Source of the DNA: a virus
Taxonomy: Duplodnaviria; Heunggongvirae; Uroviricota; Caudoviricetes
Virus record (IMG/VR): IMGVR_UViG_2740892028_000014
Direction: 5' to 3' (one strand)
DNA length: 14,469 nucleotides
Below the pieces are notes generated by a model. The model ran no database searches. It was given only the letters and a program-made list of their open reading frames with translations, and was not told where the DNA came from. Positions 1,657 to 14,469 of this stretch are shown piece by piece (position 1 is the first letter of the stretch; each line of letters begins with the position of its first letter). A program made the translations under genes and the position numbers.

Positions 1657-2717
1657 CCGTCCAGAAGAAGATATTTTCACTGGCTGGTATGTCGCCAAAA
1701 TCCAGCAATATGACGGCAAAATCAGTTATTAATACAGCAGATACAAGCAAAGTTTATCATTTGCTGGTGGTCGGAACGGATGCCTTAACCATACCAGAAA
1801 TCTCGGGCGATGATATTAGCATTGAGAAGGTCAGCGGCTGCGCCAGAAAATTTCTGGTCGTAGATGATGTCTTCCGCTCGTGTAGTGACTCCACAAAAAC
1901 ATTCGTCCACGCGCGTGACGTTAACGAAATGAGCGCGATGTACTGTGCTTCTGGTTCTTCCAATAGTGAGTTTTCGGAGTCCATAAAAAAGAGCTTGCCG
2001 TTATGCGGCAACACGGTTTATGGTTATAAGGCACCTCATAAAACGGGTGCCGGGATTGGCGTCCTGAAAATTCTGAAGGCGACATATGACGCGCCGAGCG
2101 TCTTTTTTTATGTCGTAGGTCTGACTCACCCATTTTTTGGGCGTTGGTGTATAATCCAGCGCCTTTGTCAATCAATGGTGGCTCAGGCGGGGGCTTCTTC
2201 GGAAGCGCCGGTATCCTTCAGAGCCGGTTACGCCAACCCTGTCTGGGCTACCACCAGCGAAATTGGCGTTTCCGGTGGTAGCGTAACCTGCTATCTGAAG
2301 GAGGCTGCCACATGCTGGCTACTACCCCTACCCAAAAACCGCAATTTATCTGGATTATCGCCGCAGTTCGCCGCGATTGCCCGACAATTACCGCCAAAAT
2401 TCATCATATTGCTGCCGAGTCTGAACGCGATGCTCGCCGTTCTCTGGTGCGCGATCACGTCTGCTTTTTTGCTGGTCGTATCCGCATGGAGGTGGCACAT
2501 GATTAAAACCTACGATGTGCATATGGATCCCCTCGAACGCACAAGCCAGATCATCACACTGACAGAAGTGATTAACGACATTCTGGTGAGCAACTCTCCC
2601 TCACGAGACGAAAGACTGAAGGCGTTACTCGCGATATTGGATCTCGCCGTTCGTGACGTTCATTTCCTGCTGGAAGGTGGACAAATGCCATGCAAAACGG
2701 GGGCAACCAATGAATAA
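1650..2717 (+). CDS. hypothetical protein; open frame of 355 aa, probably composite (see 2312..2506 and 2499..2717)
   Basis: ORF track 1650..2717. The 5' two thirds have ordinary codon usage. Between about 2300 and 2500 this frame is rich in rare codons (CTA, TTA, ATA, AGG) while another frame looks coding. True 3' end is uncertain. Confidence 0.35.
2312..2506 (+). CDS. small hypothetical protein, 64 aa (alternative frame inside 1650..2717)
   Basis: ORF track 2312..2506. Strong Shine-Dalgarno AAGGAGG 7 nt upstream of the ATG. Good codon usage. Stop overlaps the ATG at 2499 (ATGATTAA). Confidence 0.45.
   Translation: MLATTPTQKPQFIWIIAAVRRDCPTITAKIHHIAAESERDARRSLVRDHVCFFAGRIRMEVAHD
2499..2717 (+). 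CDS. small hypothetical protein, 72 aa ([17 protein letters not shown]...)
   Basis: ATG at 2499 preceded by GGAGGTGG. Same frame as the 3' end of track ORF 1650..2717. Stop at 2715-2717 overlaps the next ATG. Confidence 0.45.
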   Translation: MIKTYDVHMDPLERTSQIITLTEVINDILVSNSPSRDERLKALLAILDLAVRDVHFLLEGGQMPCKTGATNE

Positions 2718-7950: not shown

Positions 7951-7984
7951 ATGCCACCAGCTACTGAGCGGTGGCATTTTCTTG
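7951..7984 (+). terminator. rho-independent terminator-like hairpin
   Basis: ATGCCACC (7951-7958) pairs with GGTGGCAT (7970-7977); loop of about 11 nt; followed by TTTTCTT. Loop is long for a canonical terminator. Confidence 0.45.
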
Positions 7985-8045
7985 TGCTATTCGTTTCACA
8001 TTTTGCAATGAACATGATGAATATTGCGATTTGTGAAACTATAAT
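7983..8045 (+). promoter_or_regulatory. promoter of the 8079 operon: consensus -10 TATAAT (8040-8045), poor -35, upstream TGT-N12-ACA dyad (7983-8000)
   Basis: Perfect TATAAT. The hexamer 17 bp upstream is ATGAAT. Dyad TGT GCTATTCGTTTC ACA lies about 50 bp upstream of the -10 centre. Interpretation as activator-dependent is inference. Confidence 0.4.
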
Positions 8046-8078
8046 GACTGTTGTTTTATACAGTTCTAAGGGGGCGTT

Positions 8079-8252
8079 ATGGCTATTTCAGTAAAGCCAG
8101 TATTGATAAGTGAGAAGCAAATGGAAGCGATAAAGAAAATTCAGGAGGAGCAGCGTAAAAAATCAGAGGTAGGAGTTGCGCCAACGATCCACGAAATTGC
8201 TCGGGGATTAATGGATAAGGCGCTGGCTTACACTTTAACTGGACGTGGGTAA
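8079..8252 (+). CDS. small protein, 57 aa, possible ribbon-helix-helix-like regulator
   Basis: Below the track length cut-off; read directly: ATG at 8079, AAGGGGG 5-11 nt upstream, stop TAA 8250-8252. Protein MAISVKPVLISEKQMEAIKKIQEEQRKKSEVGVAPTIHEIARGLMDKALAYTLTGRG has a strand-helix-helix layout. Fold call is inference. Confidence 0.5.
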   Translation: MAISVKPVLISEKQMEAIKKIQEEQRKKSEVGVAPTIHEIARGLMDKALAYTLTGRG

Positions 8253-8256
8253 ATCA

Positions 8257-9600
8257 ATGGCTACGTGGCAACAGGGTATTAATTCTGGTGGTTTTCTGGC
8301 TGGCATCGGTACGCAAAATGAGAATGCGCCAAAGGCAAGCGACATTAACGCAACGCTTGGTCTGATCCGCGAAAACAATGAACTGGCTCGATCAGGTGCA
8401 AATAACGTTGCTCTGACAGGTCTTCGAGGTCTGGCTGGAGTTGCTGATATTTATAAGCAGCAGCAACAGCAGGAGCGTAAAGCGGCATTCCAGAAAGGCT
8501 ATGCGGATGCTTATGCGTCCGGCGACAGAGAGAAGATGCGTAATCTGGTTACTGAATTTCCTGATGAGTTTGAGGAAGTCAGAAAGGGAATGGGGTATAT
8601 CGATGATGCCCAGAGGGATGATTTTGGCAATCTGGCGCTTAAAGCACAGGTGGCCTCATCGCTGGGCGCTGGCGCATTTGGTCGATTCATGATGGACAAT
8701 GAGAAGGAAATGCGCCGCCTTGGCGTTCCGCCAGAAGTCATCGCTGACATGCATTTTAACGACCCGCAGGGCTTCCAGCACTTTGCAGGTAATCTGGCAC
8801 TATTTTCTCTCGGTCATGAGAAGTACTTCGATATCAAAGATCGAATGGAAGGTCGTCGACTTGAGCAAGGGCGACTGGATGAAAGTATGCGTCAGGCTGA
8901 CATGGAGAACGCGAGAGGATGGGCAAATATCCAGAACGCTCAACTAGACAGGGCTCAGCGAGCACAAATTCACTCAGATGAGATGGGATTGAAGCTAATG
9001 GAGCTGGGGCAAAAAGGTAAGCCGTCAGCAGACTTAATTAAGGGATTAAATTCTGATATTACCAATTTTGGCAAAAATTATAACTCTGTCAGAGCGGCAG
9101 CAAACTCTCTGCAAGCCCTTAGCAAGGTAAATACTGGCGCTGCCCAACTTGGGATTATCTTCAACTACATGAAATCTCTTGACCCGCAGTCAGTCGTTCG
9201 TGAAGGCGAACAGGTTCAGGTAATGCGGTCTGATGGCATATGGGGACAAATCAAAGGATACATAGACCAGCTTAATGCTGGAAACGGCCTGTCGCAGGAG
9301 GCAAAGGATAACATTGTTAACGCCGCAAAAATCAACGCCAATGCTATGGGGCAGCAGTTTAACCAGCAGGTTGACGAATATCTCGATACATATGGAGAAA
9401 CCATTCCTCAGGGGCTAAGAAAAAGCCTTGAAAGAAGGAAAGCGAAGCTATTTGACGATGTTTCCGGGCAGCCTACATCACAGGCTGGCACTGGGCAGGC
9501 AAAAGCGGCAACCGGAGGAATATCAGAAGGCGCAACGGCAACCAACCCTAAAACTGGTCAGAAAATTATTTACAGGAACGGAAAATGGCAGCAAATGTAA
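8257..9600 (+). CDS. hypothetical Ala/Gln/Gly-rich protein, about 447 aa; no enzymatic motif seen
   Basis: ORF track 8245..9600 uses a GTG; the first ATG is at 8257 (MATWQQ...). The upstream small-gene stop overlaps this start region. Poly-Q run and predicted helical, low-complexity sequence. Last 16 nt overlap the next gene. Confidence 0.7.
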   Translation: MATWQQGINSGGFLAGIGTQNENAPKASDINATLGLIRENNELARSGANNVALTGLRGLAGVADIYKQQQQQERKAAFQKGYADAYASGDREKMRNLVTEFPDEFEEVRKGMGYIDDAQRDDFGNLALKAQVASSLGAGAFGRFMMDNEKEMRRLGVPPEVIADMHFNDPQGFQHFAGNLALFSLGHEKYFDIKDRMEGRRLEQGRLDESMRQADMENARGWANIQNAQLDRAQRAQIHSDEMGLKLMELGQKGKPSADLIKGLNSDITNFGKNYNSVRAAANSLQALSKVNTGAAQLGIIFNYMKSLDPQSVVREGEQVQVMRSDGIWGQIKGYIDQLNAGNGLSQEAKDNIVNAAKINANAMGQQFNQQVDEYLDTYGETIPQGLRKSLERRKAKLFDDVSGQPTSQAGTGQAKAATGGISEGATATNPKTGQKIIYRNGKWQQM

Positions 9601-11702
9601 TCTTACCGGAAGGTTTTGTGCTCGATGAACAACCTGATAACTCACAGTTTCCTGATAGTTCACAGCTTCCTGATGGTTTTGTGCTTGATGCCCAACCAGA
9701 ACAGCAGCAATCACCTTTGGTTTCACCATGGGAAAATTCCAGACAGGAAAATGTTGTTAATAATGCTAACGGTTTCGACCGTTTTATGTATGGCGTTCTC
9801 AGTGGATTGATGGATGTTGGTAAAGGTGTTGGCCTGTTTCAGGATATGACACCAGAAGAGCAAGCCGCAATTCAGTCTCTACAGCAGAAGTTAGCGGCAA
9901 AACCATCAACCGCACAAGATGTTGGTGAGTTTGTTGGACAAGCAGCGCCATTTGTTAGTGGTGGTGGGATTATTTCTCAGGTTCCGAAAGGTGCGGCAAG
10001 GCTGGCTGCCGCCGCAGGGCTTGGTGCTGGAGAAGGGGCTATTGTAGCCAATGGAACAAATAGCGATGTTGCTTCCGGCGCTGCTATTGGCGCTGTGGCT
10101 GGCCCTGTAGCCGAACTTGCTGGCCCTGCAATTAATAAAATAGCTGGGAAATTAACCAAGAAGAATGTTTCTTCGATTCCAGATATTGAGGGGATTACTC
10201 CTGCCGAAGAGAAAATTCGTAAGTTATCTGCACAAGGCAACCCAAATCTTGCCTCTTCGCTTGAAGGGCTAGATCTAAAACCTCAGAAAGAAATTGTTGA
10301 GGCTGCAAATAGGCTTCATGTTGATTCAGTTCTTCCTTCTCATTTTTCAGGAAATGAGCAATACCAAGCTGTAGAGCAAGCCCTAAAGTCACGGACAGGA
10401 TCAGCGTTAAAAGCTCAAGAAGATAAAGCAATAAGCGAATTAGCCTCTAGTGCTGGCAAGATAATCGATGATGTTGCTGGTGCGCCAGATGCGTTAGCTA
10501 TGAGCGAAAAATATATTTATCAGATAAATAGTAGAATGGAAGCACTAAAAAACCGTAGTGATCAGTTATATAAACGTGTTGATTCCGCTCTATCACCAAG
10601 AACAAAAGTCGAAGCAAATAACACAAGCACTATGCTGGAAAAAATCGCTGATGATTTAGGTGGGTGGGATAATCTTGACCCAATAGAAAAGCGAGTTTTT
10701 ACAGCAATAAACCCCGGCCCAGATAGCATCCTAACGTATGCAAATTTAAACAGGCAAAGGCGTTTAGTTGGTGATGCCCTAAATAAAAAGCAGGGGCCAT
10801 ACAAAGATGCTGATAAAGAAGCGCTATCAAGACTATATGGAGCTTTAGCTGAAGACCAAAAATCTGTCTTATCCAATACTGGATACTTGCGAGATTTCGA
10901 AGTCGCACAACGCCTTGTAGCTATGAGAAAAAACTTAGAAAGGCAAATGGTAAATCTTCGCGGGAAAACACTTAATGGGGATATAGCGTATAAAGTAACG
11001 AATTCTCTTCAATCTATGGCAAAAGGTGATGCGAGAGGGTTTCGTGAGATTATGCAAAATACTCCATCAAGAACATTGCGAAGGGAGCTAGTAGGAACAG
11101 CATTAAGAGATATGCTTTCCTCTGGGAAGCGCGGGGCCGACTTTAATCCATCTGGCTTTGCAGATTGGTGGCAAAACTTGCAACACAGTGGACAGCTAAA
11201 GACTTTGGCTGAACATTTGCCAAAAGAAACAATGAGCGGACTATATGATGTATACAAAGTTGCCAGAGCAATAAAAAATGCTAAAGCGCATGAAATATCT
11301 ACTGGTAAGCTGAATGAGTTTGTAAACAGATTTAATCGGGTAACAGCTCCATACGAACTAGCAGCAAAACACATTCAAAAAATAGGCACGATGATAGGCG
11401 CTCATTTTGGATCGCTTGGAGCCATTGCTGGGGCTGATATTGGAGCAAGATTGGCGAGTAAAGCTCGATTAGCTGGTGGAGCAGGGGCGGCTGATGCTGC
11501 GGATAAATTAATTGCCTCGCCAGCCTTCCAGAGCGCAGTAAAAAATCTACACGGAAAAGCGCCTGGGCACATTGTTGATTCACGTATCAGGCGCTCCCCT
11601 CAATGGAAGAGTTTTTTTAACTCTCTTCCTGAACAGGAAAAACGGACCATCGCCCGACTGGGCATCATTACTTGGCTATCTAATGATCCAGATAATGACT
11701 AG
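9585..11702 (+). CDS. hypothetical 705-aa protein with N-terminal tandem repeat and Gly/Ala-rich zipper-like segments
   Basis: ORF track 9585..11702. Tandem peptide repeat LPEGFVLDEQP / LPDGFVLDAQP, mirrored in the DNA at about 9600-9700. Gly/Ala stretches such as GAARLAAAAGLGAGEGAIV and GSLGAIAGADIGARLA. No Walker or nuclease motifs seen. Confidence 0.75.
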   Translation: MAANVILPEGFVLDEQPDNSQFPDSSQLPDGFVLDAQPEQQQSPLVSPWENSRQENVVNNANGFDRFMYGVLSGLMDVGKGVGLFQDMTPEEQAAIQSLQQKLAAKPSTAQDVGEFVGQAAPFVSGGGIISQVPKGAARLAAAAGLGAGEGAIVANGTNSDVASGAAIGAVAGPVAELAGPAINKIAGKLTKKNVSSIPDIEGITPAEEKIRKLSAQGNPNLASSLEGLDLKPQKEIVEAANRLHVDSVLPSHFSGNEQYQAVEQALKSRTGSALKAQEDKAISELASSAGKIIDDVAGAPDALAMSEKYIYQINSRMEALKNRSDQLYKRVDSALSPRTKVEANNTSTMLEKIADDLGGWDNLDPIEKRVFTAINPGPDSILTYANLNRQRRLVGDALNKKQGPYKDADKEALSRLYGALAEDQKSVLSNTGYLRDFEVAQRLVAMRKNLERQMVNLRGKTLNGDIAYKVTNSLQSMAKGDARGFREIMQNTPSRTLRRELVGTALRDMLSSGKRGADFNPSGFADWWQNLQHSGQLKTLAEHLPKETMSGLYDVYKVARAIKNAKAHEISTGKLNEFVNRFNRVTAPYELAAKHIQKIGTMIGAHFGSLGAIAGADIGARLASKARLAGGAGAADAADKLIASPAFQSAVKNLHGKAPGHIVDSRIRRSPQWKSFFNSLPEQEKRTIARLGIITWLSNDPDND

Positions 11703-11705
11703 TGA

Positions 11706-11721
11706 ATGGCCACGGATGGCC
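11706..11721. terminator. short GC hairpin between convergent genes (weak terminator candidate)
   Basis: ATGGCC ACGG ATGGCC: the self-complementary GGCC arms can pair; T-rich tract follows on the + strand. Sits exactly between the stops of 9585..11702 and 11722..12078. Stem is only 4 bp. Confidence 0.25.
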
Positions 11722-12078
11722 TCAATCTTTATTCTTTGAAATAGAGTCATTGATCTTTTCGAAACACCAATGAAATCCACAAAAGAGAGCTACACCAATA
11801 TAACAATACAAAACTATCAACCACCTTTCAGTGTCCGAAGGGTAAAAAACATCAATTACATAAGCAACACCAATTGGTATTAATGCTAGTAATAACATCG
11901 ACATAGGACGTACAAACTTCTGAACTATATCAATTTTATAGAACCACAAGGCGGTATGTTTAATGATATAAGTAAAGATGGCTGCGCCAATAATGGCAAA
12001 AAACACCATCGATAAGGTCGGGTATAACTTTGCGACAATTAAACCCAACAAAATAATTATAACTGCCTGCCCCCTCAC
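11722..12078 (-). CDS. small integral membrane protein, 118 aa, about 3 predicted TM helices
   Basis: ORF track 11722..12078 (-). GTG start with AAGGGGG 5 nt upstream on the minus strand. Hydrophobic segments IIILLGLIVAKL, VFFAIIGAAIFTYII, LLLALIPIGVAYVI. AT-rich codon usage. Confidence 0.55.
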   Translation of the reverse strand: MRGQAVIIILLGLIVAKLYPTLSMVFFAIIGAAIFTYIIKHTALWFYKIDIVQKFVRPMSMLLLALIPIGVAYVIDVFYPSDTERWLIVLYCYIGVALFCGFHWCFEKINDSISKNKD

Positions 12079-12191
12079 ACCAACCCCCTTTAGCGTTGTT
12101 TAGAATGGCAATCATCATATATCCAAGACATGGCATTTGGTACATAGCTTGGGTCGGGATTTCAAATCCGATCCCCGTTGATGGGGCCGTT

Positions 12192-12573
12192 ACAGTACGC
12201 GCATATCCGCTTTATGTGAAACAGGAAGATTTTTCTGATATCACTGCCACAGCAAAACACCAATTTCGTGACCAGTACGCGCGCGAGGGGTATCAGTTGC
12301 AAAATTTTTTGCAACTGCGTCCGACCAGTACGCGCACGATGGAGGGGAGTGCCATAAAACTGTTCTCTACATAAGACAGAGTGGTGGTGATGTGTTGATT
12401 ATCGGCGTATATGCGCACAGGACGCGCTATGACGATGTTTTATGCGGGTACACCAATCACATGTATCTGATGTGATAAATCGTGTTACATGACATATCAT
12501 GTTGTGCTGGTGGTTATCACGACTTTCTGAATCTGGCCTTTGCCTGATATTTTGCGACAAGTACGCGCGCGTA
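12192..12573. repeat. family of short repeats with an alternating CG core (consensus roughly ACCAGTACGCGCGCG)
   Basis: Copies at 12192-12203, 12271-12287, 12324-12339 and 12557-12573, with a fifth at 14232-14247. Longer shared context CAATTTC..GA.CA.TACGCGCGCG at 12261-12287 and 14219-14246. Confidence 0.5.
12294..12317. promoter_or_regulatory. 24-bp palindrome CAGTTGCAAAA-TT-TTTTGCAACTG
   Basis: Perfect 11-bp inverted arms with a 2-bp spacer, between two copies of the CG-core repeat. Confidence 0.4.
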
Positions 12574-12599
12574 GCATCGACAGCATACACATTGGATAT

Positions 12600-12821
12600 T
12601 CATTTTGTGACCAATGCGATAAGTAGCGGGATAAGAATTGATAAAATCAACAGGCCGATGATCCACTTTTGATTTTCACTGGCCTTATCTCTATTTTCAT
12701 CAATCTTATCAATAATTCGACGCTCCAAGCCGTGCATATCACCGCGAATGGCAATCATCTCATTGCGAACATCCGAGAAGTGGTTGGCTTGATGTTCAAT
12801 GTGTGGCGTTCTGCCTTTCAT
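12600..12821 (-). CDS. small membrane protein, 73 aa: soluble N-terminal helix plus single C-terminal TM (XhlA/holin-like architecture)
   Basis: ORF track 12600..12821 (-). ATG start with GTGAGGA upstream on the minus strand. C-terminal WIIGLLILSILIPLLIALVTK is a clear TM segment. Family resemblance recalled, not searched. Confidence 0.55.
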   Translation of the reverse strand: MKGRTPHIEHQANHFSDVRNEMIAIRGDMHGLERRIIDKIDENRDKASENQKWIIGLLILSILIPLLIALVTK

Positions 12822-12900
12822 GCCTGATCCTCACCTATCGTCACCACCTGCTGGTGTATAAAGGTATTGGCCCAAGCAGCTTTCCAATGGGCACTCATGT

Positions 12901-13356
12901 TTATACGCTGACCTTACAATCAATCACCGCTTTTAACTTTTCAGCATTGCTTCCCTGGCGCTTCCACGCGCTGTAAATGTCTTTATCCCATGCTTTACCA
13001 GCTTTTGTTTGATAGCCTGCTTCATTGAGCCGTTCCGCTATCACACGCCCATTATCAAATCCCTGTCGGATGGTATCGGCAATGATCTTTATAACTGCCG
13101 TTTCGTTATATGGCTTTGGTGGGATGTTCGGCTTTCCGGCAATAAGCGACGCAGCGGCTTTTTCCATGCGCTCCACCAGCCCAAGCATTCGTGAATCAAT
13201 AGACTTTTCCGGCTGTCCCAGCTTCATGCGAATCGCATCAACAAGCCAGGAGGTTTTATCCCCTCCAGAAGCGAGAACAGACCGATTAAACTCATCCTGC
13301 AATTCAGATGGGATGCGGAACGCGACCAGATTAGATTTGCTCATTGCAAAGACCAT
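12901..13356 (-). CDS. DNA-binding protein, 151 aa: N-terminal ribbon-helix-helix-like segment plus C-terminal recombinase-type HTH-like segment
   Basis: ORF track 12901..13356 (-). N-terminus SKSNLVAFRIPSELQDEFNRSVLASGGDKTSWLVDAIRMKLG looks RHH-like. C-terminus IAERLNEAGYQTKAGKAWDKDIYSAWKRQ resembles the DNA-binding segment of serine-recombinase accessory domains. Both are motif-level calls. Confidence 0.55.
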   Translation of the reverse strand: MVFAMSKSNLVAFRIPSELQDEFNRSVLASGGDKTSWLVDAIRMKLGQPEKSIDSRMLGLVERMEKAAASLIAGKPNIPPKPYNETAVIKIIADTIRQGFDNGRVIAERLNEAGYQTKAGKAWDKDIYSAWKRQGSNAEKLKAVIDCKVSV

Positions 13357-13374
13357 ATCAGTGAGTAATATCCA

Positions 13375-13404
13375 TACAGTATACCACTGTATAACACTGT
13401 TATA
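13375..13404. promoter_or_regulatory. overlapping operator-like inverted repeats: TACAGT-N5-ACTGTA and TATAAC-N3-GTTATA
   Basis: Read directly at 13375-13391 and 13390-13404, about 20-50 bp upstream of the 12901..13356 start on the minus strand. Confidence 0.35.
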
Positions 13405-13458
13405 CGCTCAAATATCAGCCAGAAAATAACGGGCCAATCACAAAGCTATCGCTGTGTT

Positions 13459-13579
13459 GTTGGTTCAGAGCTGGGCTGTGTTGGTTCAAAATGAGTTGAT
13501 GTTGGTTCAATATTTCAGAAAAAACACAATAAAAACAACGATCTTTACAAATTGAACCAACTGAACCAACTGAACCAAC
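13459..13579. repeat. iteron array: three GTTGGTTCA copies phased 21 bp apart plus a perfect tandem triple of the inverse TGAACCAAC
   Basis: GTTGGTTCA at 13459-13467, 13480-13488, 13501-13509. TGAACCAAC x3 contiguous at 13553-13579. Lies in the divergent region between 12901..13356 (-) and 13616..13903 (+). Confidence 0.65.
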
Positions 13580-13615
13580 ACCTTTTTGCTTATCTATATA
13601 ATCTGAGAGGCAGAA

Positions 13616-13903
13616 ATGATAAGGGACAGGAAAGCTGAAGAGCTGGAGTCAAAAGGGCTATACCGGAGAGCTGCCGCACGATGGGCAGAAGTCATGATGC
13701 TGGCAGATGGCGATAAAGAACGTGAACATGCAGCAAACAGACGCTCTGAATGTATCCGTAAGGCGGCACGCCCACCAGCAACTACAGACAGATTCGGAGA
13801 TTTAAGACAGGCAGTTAAGCGGACTCATTCGGCTCTTGGTATGGATGAGGAAGCGAGAGGGTACTTCAGGCGTTATCGCGATAAAGATTGCCAGAGACAG
13901 TAA
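13616..13903 (+). CDS. PerC-family transcriptional regulator-like protein, 95 aa
   Basis: ORF track 13616..13903. N-terminus AEELESKGLYRRAAARWAEVM matches the PerC-type signature as I recall it. TATAAT at 13597-13602 just upstream; GAGAGG before the ATG. Confidence 0.65.
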   Translation: MIRDRKAEELESKGLYRRAAARWAEVMMLADGDKEREHAANRRSECIRKAARPPATTDRFGDLRQAVKRTHSALGMDEEARGYFRRYRDKDCQRQ

Positions 13904-14019
13904 TGCTCTCTCTGTTTTGGCAAATTACCCCTCACTTTGAAGGGATCGGAGCTATAAAAATGGTTTTAGGTACATTCCTCAAATTGAGGATTGTGGGAAA
14001 ACCAATGAGTTAGGCTTTT

Positions 14020-14037
14020 CCCCCAATGGGGGTTTTC
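14020..14037 (+). terminator. rho-independent terminator-like hairpin CCCCC-AAT-GGGGG + TTTT
   Basis: GC stem followed by a T-run about 120 bp downstream of the 13616..13903 stop. An alternative pairing with upstream GGGAAAA is possible. Confidence 0.4.
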
Positions 14038-14148
14038 GAAAGAATCAATGGGTTAGTCCATCGTGCAAATTTGCACCCTGCCAGCCAACGCAATTTCTCG
14101 TTGGCGAAAATATCAGGTATTTACTGAACGAACGGTCTACCAGTCTGT

Positions 14149-14469
14149 TCAGTTACCAGTTGCATATGGCTGTTTCATGTGAGAACGGAGGTTTTTTCGG
14201 ACATCACTATTGGGTACAGCAATTTCACGAGCAATACGCGCGCGCAGGACAACAAGCCTGAACATGGTTACACACCTCGATCGTGAGGGATGTAGGCAAT
14301 GGCTTCTGACCAAAGCACCCGAAAAAACCGTGTACATAAGGGTGTACATAATCAAAAATCGCATTAGGAAGAAACCAGCTACAATGCGGCATTGAAGCCA
14401 ATACTCTACAAACAGATTCAAAGCGACATATCTCCGTAGGCCGTTGTTAATTACAGCGGCGCTACGCAT
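14149..14469 (-). CDS. hypothetical protein, 106 aa, hydrophobic core; gene status doubtful
   Basis: ORF track 14149..14469 (-). Its ATG is the last three bases of the window, just as the window begins on the alpA ATG, so it may be annotated in the source. Sequence is Arg/Cys-rich and looks atypical. Confidence 0.3.
   Translation of the reverse strand: MRSAAVINNGLRRYVALNLFVEYWLQCRIVAGFFLMRFLIMYTLMYTVFSGALVRSHCLHPSRSRCVTMFRLVVLRARIAREIAVPNSDVRKNLRSHMKQPYATGN

Follow-up and report, generated by a model that had tools for sequence, protein, structure and literature searches.

Repeated CG motifs in a P22-type satellite-like island match small-terminase gene segments and are candidate pac-site mimics

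The alternating-CG motif of the TACGCGCGCG type that recurs in this window (the whole 14,469-nt stretch analysed) is, judged by sequence comparison, a 27-nt non-coding copy of a segment of the Sf6-type small-terminase gene (TerS, PF20901). These copies, here called a units, are interleaved with two further kinds of unit, b and c, both here and in related elements of other genera. Because pieces of terminase genes lie beside copies of the P22 pac site, the island is probably packaged by P22-like helper phages, and we suggest, with a probability of about two in three, that the array mimics the pac sites of several TerS types. The a-type units of the window are as follows.

12190..12205 (core 12193-12203), + strand: copy 1, a partial a-type unit with only the core CAGTACGCGCA
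12261..12287, + strand: copy 2, an a-type unit, CAATTTCGTGACCAGTACGCGCGCGAG, equal to Sf6-type TerS codons F-R-D-Q-Y-A-R but non-coding; CG-motif string GACCAGTACGCGCGCGAGGG at 12270-12289; 32.7 bits
12323..12342, + strand: copy 3, a partial a-type unit, GACCAGTACGCGCACGATGG
12547..12573, + strand: copy 4, an a-type unit, ATATTTTGCGACAAGTACGCGCGCGTA, with TTTCGCGACAAGTACGCG as the nearest Sf6 allele; CG-motif string GACAAGTACGCGCGCGTAGC at 12556-12575; 23.1 bits
14220..14246, + strand: copy 5, an a-type unit, CAATTTCACGAGCAATACGCGCGCGCA; CG-motif string GAGCAATACGCGCGCGCAGG at 14229-14248; 25.8 bits

The matrix behind these scores includes no unit of the window itself, and the 95th percentile of the window maximum under its null is 13.2 bits. 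Copies 1 and 3 are partial units only. All five copies reported by the initial annotation are thus present on the same (+) strand, at 12193-12575 and 14220-14246. The heptamer TACGCGC occurs six times in the window, always inside 12196-14241, as compared with a mean of 1.46 in dinucleotide shuffles, of which 1 in 200 reached six or more; similarly, AGTACGCGCGCG with up to two mismatches was observed 5 times against 0.81 expected, and none of 200 shuffles gave five or more. The longer context that copies 2 and 5 were said to share is also real, with 83% identity between 12257-12285 and 14216-14244, and the paralogy of the two sites reaches beyond what had been described, to about 100 nt (12188-12288 and 14151-14248, roughly 70% identity). 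The distant copy, noted earlier as bracketing about 2 kb, is therefore paralogous to the cluster, and the interval encloses cargo and regulatory genes.

The segment copied in the a units encodes (E/D)-F-(R/H)-(D/E)-(Q/K)-Y-A-(R/K)-A, where the DNA-binding domain of Sf6-type TerS ends, and its alternating CG run is the codon string TAC-GCG-CGC for Tyr-Ala-Arg. Consistent with this, residues 51-62 of Sf6 gp1 (AKHEDFRDKYAK) align by tblastn to AKHQ-FRDQYAR at copy 2. When viral contigs were searched with a degenerate motif, more than 120 contigs with GC contents of 0.36-0.67 were found, varying at synonymous positions, and the matches lay mostly inside ORFs of about 100-200 aa that match the Sf6_terminase family PF20901 (E = 1e-26 to 1e-45). 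A matrix built from satellite a units gives 27.9 bits at nt 163-189 of Sf6 gene 1, where the next best position reaches 4.8; its best scores elsewhere are 14.3 bits in P22, at a position away from the pac site, and 8.6 bits in 14 kb of E. coli chromosome. One unit of a related array (a4 of L025) is identical to Sf6 gene 1 at 23 of 24 positions. Copy 5 corresponds to another allele, since it equals, at 20 of 20 nt, the F-H-E-Q-Y-A-R codons of TerS genes in three P22-like contigs (L114, L128, L147) whose portals are 79-81% identical to P22 gp1. This allele adjoins a P22-like portal in the viral-contig data, the only place where it was seen, and has no close relative among deposited phages. The island hence retains several allelic versions of the a segment. 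We had also tried to read the block as one colinear terS pseudogene, with the a units as parts of P22 gp3, but tblastn gave only E = 0.2-0.4 and the idea was dropped because the a units proved to be of Sf6 type.

While the CG motif does not match the P22-type pac GAAGATTTATCTGAAGTCGTTA or its core AAGATTTATCTG, the neighbouring b units do, and a third kind of unit, c, occurs elsewhere in the island.

1798..1928, − strand: inverted gp3-type (P22 family, PF16677) terS fragment, within the 5' portion of the annotated 'ash' ORF
1968..1994, + strand: c-type unit, GAGTTTTCGGAGTCCATAAAAAAGAGC; 34.4 bits
7745-7771: weaker c-type unit; 17.6 bits
7902..7928, + strand: second c-type unit, upstream of the ejection-protein genes; 23.8 bits
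12225..12253, + strand: b-type unit, GAAGATTTTTCTGATATCACTGCCACAGC, resembling P22 pac; 23.5 bits with an outside-built matrix
14188..14216, + strand: degenerate b-like unit just upstream of copy 5, reflecting the paralogy with the cluster; 11.0 bits, under the null threshold

The b unit at 12225..12253 agrees with P22 pac at 16 of 22 nt (11 of 12 in the core), the equivalent site of phage Bas106 agreeing at 17 of 22, and it obeys the published pseudo-pac pattern save for one position. A chance match to P22 pac as good as this one is expected in about 10% of windows of this size; the similarity of a single site is not significant alone, so the case rests on the unit family and family-level matrices were used. 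The b matrix rests on 12 b units, all external to the window; it ranks the annotated pac site (nt 4) first among the roughly 83,000 positions of the P22 genome, with 30.7 bits against 9.5 for the runner-up, and scores 30.5 bits at the pac-equivalent site in terS of the E. coli phage Bas106. By these alignments and scores the b units are clearly relatives of the P22 pac site. The inverted 130-nt terS fragment carries a pac-equivalent b unit as well, at 1876-1904 (28.0 bits); it matches P22 gp3 with E = 2e-13 and Bas106 TerS with E = 5e-15 in tblastn, and is about 91% identical in nucleotides to terS of the E. coli phages Bas106 and IME10. P22-like phages have a third TerS family, of HTH type, whose E-F-(L/S)-E-S-I-K-K codons are matched by the c unit at 1968..1994 (95th percentile of the c-matrix null, 16.1 bits). 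All three TerS types, Sf6-type, gp3-type and the third HTH type, occur in P22-like phages. Alignment thus shows that the units are homologous to segments of TerS genes and to the pac site of P22.

Real TerS genes point in the same direction. The relatives of Sf6 gp1 that were retrieved were all at least 91% identical and of no use for a codon-rate test, so degenerate patterns were used in a peptide-level search, which yielded 24 TerS clusters sharing less than 50% identity. In the motif codons of these clusters, which are phylogenetically non-independent, GAC outnumbers GAT by 13:1, CAA outnumbers CAG by 18:6 and TAC outnumbers TAT by 21:3, with GCG in 16 of 24, as against 48% GAC, 43% CAA, 57% TAC and 26% GCG outside the motif in the same ORFs. 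The c segment reads GAG-TCC-ATA-AAA in 14-15 of 15 clusters despite GC contents of 0.27-0.58. Both a and c segments are thus under strong synonymous-codon constraint in real TerS genes, which points to a site acting there at the DNA level.

Copies 1-4 and a b unit belong to a conserved block that ends where variable cargo starts.

12146..12580, + strand: conserved non-coding block of 435 bp (copies 1-4 and the b unit), with different flanking genes in different elements
12581..12933, no strand assigned: variable cargo slot 1, with a 73-aa gene here and ImmA/IrrE, Abi or HTH genes in relatives

Of 5426 complete E. coli genomes, 545 contain the block, at 579 places and thus about once per carrier genome, so that we reject a genome-wide, REP-like repeat, an outcome that the initial annotation had named as fatal to its reading. 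Neither a nor b units match anything in 14 kb of flanking chromosome. No gene is annotated across the block in the RefSeq homologues examined. An unannotated 92-codon ORF with a TTG start (12096-12374) overlaps its first part. The block has no BLAST match among 50,697 deposited phage genomes, where a 35-nt piece and the translated peptide gave only noise. Nor is it confined to satellites, because it also occurs in a P22-like, prophage-like contig (L038) with an Sf6-type terS of its own. The motif copies sit exactly at mosaic junctions: homology with one relative (L007) begins at copy 1, and homology stops at 12580, about 7 nt past copy 4, in L008, L009, L010 and most of the 546 matching records. 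Variable cargo begins directly after two a units, and in strain E20 a different cargo follows copy 5, a junction seen in L539. Within the block, copy 3 is degenerate in relatives, and L011 shows a clean 53-bp deletion between copies 2 and 3; the b-like unit at 14188..14216 is partly deleted in L001. A genome scan with the b pattern alone found islands in Kosakonia and Atlantibacter arranged a-b-b-b-a-c, and L025 and L180 hold similar arrays. Across genera, the units within each array share one orientation.

The setting of the array fits a P22-type satellite. The island is integrated at the 3' end of yicC in E. coli, with an empty integration site seen in L003, and has P22-like ejection-protein genes; no terminase gene, satellite TerS or Rpp-like gene was detected in it. 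Its right-hand boundary is as follows.

14331..14421, + strand: attR region, with an arm-type repeat cGTGTACATAagGGTGTACATAAT at 14331-14355 and the core at about 14408-14421, the yicC 3' end

A scan of the whole window gave no tRNA genes, promoters and terminators showed no excess over shuffles, and an Rfam scan of 11500-14469 returned only a spurious miRNA match.

We hypothesize that, as a P22-like helper grows, its TerS would recognize whichever island unit corresponds to the pac within the helper's terS gene, after which the terminase would cut near that unit and fill a head with island DNA. Packaging would proceed 5' to 3' along the unit, rightward for those on the + strand; its direction is that of the pac sequence as written (PMC10996546). 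TerS binding, the initiation of packaging and the identity of the helper are what we infer here. We lean towards the wider proposal that elements exploiting P22-like phages carry a multi-specificity cassette, in which pac mimics of at least three TerS families (Sf6-type, P22 gp3-type and the third HTH type) would let them be packaged by whichever helper arrives, and that the arrays together with the codon constraint pinpoint the pac sites of two TerS families that are widespread, roughly TTTCGCGACCAATACGCG and GAGTCCATAAAAAAGG.

The initial annotation saw in the copies a recognition-type repeat family, an idea that our results support, although not in the forms it considered. As the copies form direct repeats in non-coding DNA, close to regulator genes and to attR, they could be operators (of the 151-aa RHH protein, PerC or AlpA), integrase or attachment-site remnants, or Z-DNA elements, which we now regard as very improbable. 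The gap between the 151-aa gene and perC has a separate repeat set of its own, TGTTGGTTCA at 13458-13580, with a similar repeat cluster downstream of the primase gene in L001, and a role as replication iterons or as operator of the 151-aa/PerC divergent region fits these repeats, not the CG motif. The same units occur in L025, L065 and L080 with neither a PerC nor an RHH gene in the inspected surroundings; the att core, at the yicC 3' end (cagattca...), and the integrase arm repeats (GTGTACATA, 14331-14355) differ in sequence from the motif, of which attL, between yicC and int, has no copy. The Z-DNA proposal finds no support, the CG run being explained as codons of a small-terminase gene. Non-functional debris, that is, scars of recombination between the island and P22-like terS regions too recent to have decayed, is suggested by the mosaic make-up of the island, with its P22-derived modules and inverted 130-nt terS fragment, and by the degeneracy of copies 1 and 3 and of the b-like unit at 14188. 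Yet random gene decay would not produce one 27-29-nt segment several times over, nor draw on three TerS families and different alleles, co-oriented in each array. The arrays, moreover, recur in at least four genera and at two different loci, and the segments kept are exactly those experimentally defined as pac (P22) or constrained at synonymous sites; we therefore consider this explanation unlikely.

It is quite unlikely, in our estimate, that the array is chiefly a decoy, misdirecting or titrating an incoming P22-like terminase to lower the burst, with transfer of the island itself secondary. The units do adjoin variable slots with Abi, ImmA/IrrE and toxin-antitoxin genes, and the block is also present in the prophage-like element that has its own terS. 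However, such a defence needs the same TerS recognition step as the pac mimics, so that sequence cannot separate the two, and packaging directly benefits an element that has ejection-protein genes and in which no terminase gene was detected. Interference at the RNA level, in which array transcripts would pair with helper terS mRNAs, has hardly any claim on us. The block of the window lies between minus-strand genes, and read-through RNA would therefore be antisense to terS, the units being sense on the + strand and lying downstream of two minus-strand genes (151 aa and 73 aa). Stretches of 20-24 nt in some units match TerS alleles, and the palindromic CG cores permit long-range pairing in predicted folds. 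Against this, L065 and L080 carry their arrays in sense orientation amid a series of + strand genes, the site that the b units match has an established role as DNA, and the fold z-scores of the block (-2.2 and -2.5) are modest relative to shuffles, with no Rfam family match; relatives are too alike for covariation.

If the units are indeed pac mimics, they would supply precise candidates for the pac sequence in two families, the large Sf6_terminase family and the third one, and would show how a satellite lacking a terminase could widen its helper range by stacking pac specificities. They would also predict packaging starts in roughly 10% of E. coli genomes, the carriers of the block, and the neighbouring yicG-ligB-spoT region might be transduced laterally from those starts. 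In any case, a satellite-like island with P22-type ejection-protein genes is brought to notice. To our knowledge, how TerS recognizes DNA is understood for only a minority of headful-packaging phages, P22 is among the few whose pac is defined to the base pair, and Sf6 pac is not known to have been defined exactly. Leavitt et al. (2013) reportedly placed Sf6 pac within the gene 1 region for the DNA-binding domain, though not to the nucleotide. The a unit matches nt 163-189 of gene 1, where that region ends, and we would equate it with the Sf6 pac on the grounds of mimicry and codon constraint. No description of such stacked pac-mimic arrays was found in the searchable library, in which the motif strings gave nothing relevant.

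In P22, gene 3 is the terS gene and contains the 22-bp pac (Wu et al. 2002); pseudo-pac sites for this phage are described in Salmonella (Maier et al. 2024, PMC10996546). Like these, the a unit is a short asymmetric sequence from within terS of a kind used or proposed elsewhere as a packaging start, but it comes from another TerS family, and the sites of the island are non-coding, repeated and mixed with those of other families. Moreover, pseudo-pac sites are chance chromosomal matches, whereas the island holds conserved arrays. Among satellites, P4 carries the cos site of P2, the E. coli PICIs carry cos together with Rpp, and SaPIs and PLE encode their own TerS with its own pac site. The closest logic is that of P4, a satellite bearing its helper's own packaging site. 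In contrast to all of these, the putative signals of the island are terS fragments of the pac (headful) type, with several specificities stacked in one array.

Our comparisons show that, at the level of sequence, the alternating-CG motif family consists of short non-coding copies of one segment of a small terminase (TerS) gene, all facing one way inside a given array and interspersed with P22 pac-site copies and with copies of a third TerS segment. They are set in an island that carries P22-type ejection-protein genes and in which no terminase gene was detected. A repeat search of the window bore out the family described in the initial annotation, with four 20-nt copies starting at 12270, 12323, 12556 and 14229 and a short fifth at 12193, all on the + strand and above shuffle expectation: a 12-mer with ≤2 mismatches has 5 occurrences where 0.81 are expected (0 of 200 shuffles reach 5), and TACGCGC occurs 6 times, always inside 12196-14241, against 1.46 expected. 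The longer context noted around two copies likewise held up, 29 nt being common to 12257-12285 and 14216-14244, and local alignment extends the paralogy of the two sites to ~100 nt (12188-12288 and 14151-14248). The copies at 12193 and 12323 are partial units. Between copies 2 and 3 lies an AT-rich near-perfect palindrome, CAGTTGCAAAAnnTTTTGCAACTG (12294-12317), whose centre varies among relatives, reading AATTTT in some and AAAATT in others.

A degenerate scan found the CG motif (a units) in over 120 viral contigs (GC 0.36-0.67), mostly inside ORFs of ~100-200 aa that read ...TVFRWL..(E/D)F(R/H)(D/E)QYARARE... and match the Sf6 small terminase family (Pfam PF20901). The motif is therefore made of TerS codons, and the "alternating CG" is TAC-GCG-CGC, coding Tyr-Ala-Arg. 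Its counterpart in Sf6 gene 1, nt 163-189 (GAT TTT CGC GAC AAG TAC GCG AAG GCA), scores 27.9 bits with the a matrix. The three full a units of the window represent three alleles, FRDQYAR, F(C)DKYAR and FHEQYAR, and TerS genes with the FHEQYAR allele adjoin portals 79-81% identical to the P22 portal. The c units match E-F-(L/S)-E-S-I-K-K-G-K of a third, HTH-type TerS; in one member of this family the C-terminus is almost that of Sf6 gp1, identifying this protein as a P22-like phage TerS whose DNA-binding domain has been swapped.

Between copies 1 and 2 we located GAAGATTTTTCTGATATCACTG, a b unit that is identical to P22 pac (GAAGATTTATCTGAAGTCGTTA, nt 4-25, inside gene 3 in the P22 record annotation) at 16 of 22 positions and at 11 of 12 in the core, a quality of match that, taken alone, is reached in ~10% of random windows. 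It agrees with the published P22 pseudo-pac pattern at all but one position (PMC10996546). With the b matrix, the genuine P22 pac site comes out on top in the whole P22 genome (30.7 bits versus 9.5 for the runner-up), and the equivalent site in terS of E. coli phage Bas106 scores 30.5 bits. Matrices built solely from units outside the window recovered the following units, with null 95th percentiles of the window maximum at 13-16 bits.

Units scored in the window
1876-1904, - strand, b unit, 28.0 bits
1968-1994, + strand, c unit, 34.4 bits
7902-7928, + strand, c unit, 23.8 bits
12225-12253, + strand, b unit, 23.5 bits
12261-12287, + strand, a unit, 32.7 bits
12547-12573, + strand, a unit, 23.1 bits
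14220-14246, + strand, a unit, 25.8 bits

A 130-nt gp3-type terS fragment (1798-1928, minus strand; tblastn with P22 gp3, E = 2e-13), sharing ~91% identity with the terS genes of phages Bas106 and IME10, lies inverted in the 5' third of an ORF annotated 'ash family protein' (1650-2717). The Ash Pfam domain of this ORF begins only at residue 124, so its true start probably lies further downstream than annotated. The c unit at 1968 shares the reading frame of this ORF and could be translated within it.

Codon usage in TerS ORFs, collected by a fully degenerate peptide-pattern search and then clustered, suggests that these segments act as DNA. Among 24 a-family clusters (<50% identity; counts without phylogenetic correction), the motif codons are GAC 13:1, CAA 18:6, TAC 21:3 and GCG 16/24, against shares of 48%, 43%, 57% and 26% outside the motif in the same ORFs; in 15 c-family clusters (GC 0.27-0.58), GAG, TCC and AAA never vary and ATA is found in 14. 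Such synonymous constraint is what a cis-acting site within the gene would give, and at the a segment it agrees with the location of Sf6 pac, which Leavitt et al. in 2013 reportedly placed in the gene 1 portion encoding the DNA-binding domain. GAG-TCC-ATA-AAA-AAG, near-invariant across third-family TerS genes from IMG/VR (L385-L422) at GC 0.27-0.58, rare Ile codon ATA included, is a strong candidate for the pac site of that family.

Similar arrays occur in distant relatives. In L025, a related element (GC 0.55) from a motif-pair scan of viral contigs, a non-coding array alternates a units, of which a4 is identical to Sf6 gene 1 at 23 of 24 positions, with six pac-like b units, one matching P22 at 25 of 31 positions, flank TACGCGAGCAG included. 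A scan with the b pattern only, in one genome per species, found the order a-b-b-b-a followed by a c unit in Kosakonia and Atlantibacter islands; since a was thereby recovered, a and b units travel together. Two further loci, L180 and L115, hold more arrays. L038 (IMGVR_UViG_3300045988_004969), a P22-like prophage-like contig encoding homologues of portal, coat, gp4, gp10, gp26, gp14, gp7, gp20 and gp16 together with an Sf6-type terS, also carries the non-coding block found at 12146-12580 in the window, so arrays are not confined to satellites. Its block is bordered by the gene-16 homologue on one side and by att-like repeats with a xis-like gene on the other; tblastn of a 14-kb part gave no P22 tailspike match. 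Past their arrays, L025 (9900-10060) and L038 (~13500-13620) both have TTAGTCAAA(C/A)TTAGTGTTGCGAGC and then repeated TGTTA(G/T)..ATTGTT motifs, probable integrase arm sites belonging to another att type.

The window is almost an entire E. coli integrative island. In NZ_OZ039045 yicC and yicG flank the same DNA, which has a tyrosine integrase at its left end, and the empty site of an island-free strain (...cagaatatcgagTAAgcgacatatctcc) together with the island flanks places the insertion in the 3' end of yicC; the right junction is at ~14408-14421, and the final 49 nt are chromosome. The inserted island gives yicC a new stop codon (loci compared: window 14331-14421, L002 1771-1960 and L003 2480-2520, the last holding the empty site), and attR of the window is without 7 nt (tcgagta) that L001, another relative, has. 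Both arms carry cGTGTACATA..GGTGTACATAAT; arm-type repeats GTGTACATA are present on each. The motif is neither att core nor arm site, and the earlier idea of attachment-site remnants is not sustained.

With an AlpA-like HTH protein, AntA, Ash, a primase-helicase, ejection-protein genes, a membrane protein, a 151-aa protein and PerC, the predicted gene content looks like that of a phage satellite. The ejection-protein genes are 90-93% identical to E. coli podophage counterparts; they are equivalents of gp7, gp20 and gp16 (window 8245-11702, L001 8698-13356; podophages Kapi1, E212 and EC.P3), and a minus-strand membrane-protein gene follows at the position of P22 sieA. The 151-aa protein has an N-terminus that is ribbon-helix-helix-like as judged by eye, one weak PHROG match and no match in a Pfam search. 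Between its gene and the divergent perC, TGTTGGTTCA occurs in three direct and three inverted copies (13458-13580). In L001 a cluster 78% similar to this one follows the primase gene (7954-8074), and the primase-downstream and TGTTGGTTCA-type clusters recall the P4 ori/crr pair; a second such cluster is absent from the window. The primase ORF measures 783 aa in the window and 918 aa in L001.

The four clustered copies lie within 435 bp devoid of annotated genes (12146-12580), a block that 545 of 5426 complete E. coli genomes contain, nearly always ending at 12580, and that has no match among 50,697 deposited phage genomes. Rightward of position 12580 relatives differ, with ImmA/IrrE, Abi or HTH genes directly adjoining; in one relative homology begins only at copy 1, another has a clean 53-bp deletion from copy 2 to 3, and in strain E20 homology stops directly past copy 5, where a Doc toxin module follows. 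The copies thus mark edges of conserved DNA beside variable cargo. Two variable slots (12581-12933 and downstream of 14246), where relatives have an Abi protein, a Doc toxin module, small HTH genes or ImmA/IrrE with a partner gene, resemble hotspots of defence or addiction. Junctions after a units may only reflect selection that preserves the units as the DNA beside them is exchanged; they could also stem from recombination, either at repeated units or at ends made by terminase.

We infer that the units are putative pac-site mimics for the terminases of different P22-like helpers, which would start packaging on island DNA at these units. Packaging from + strand units would proceed rightward, because it takes the direction in which the pac sequence is written (PMC10996546). 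Neither stacked multi-family pac mimics nor these motif strings turned up in our search of the accessible literature. Among the closest known cases are the pac and pseudo-pac sites of P22, the TerS/pac arrangement of Sf6, the satellite P4, which carries the packaging site (cos) of its helper, and SaPI and PLE, satellites with their own TerS and pac.
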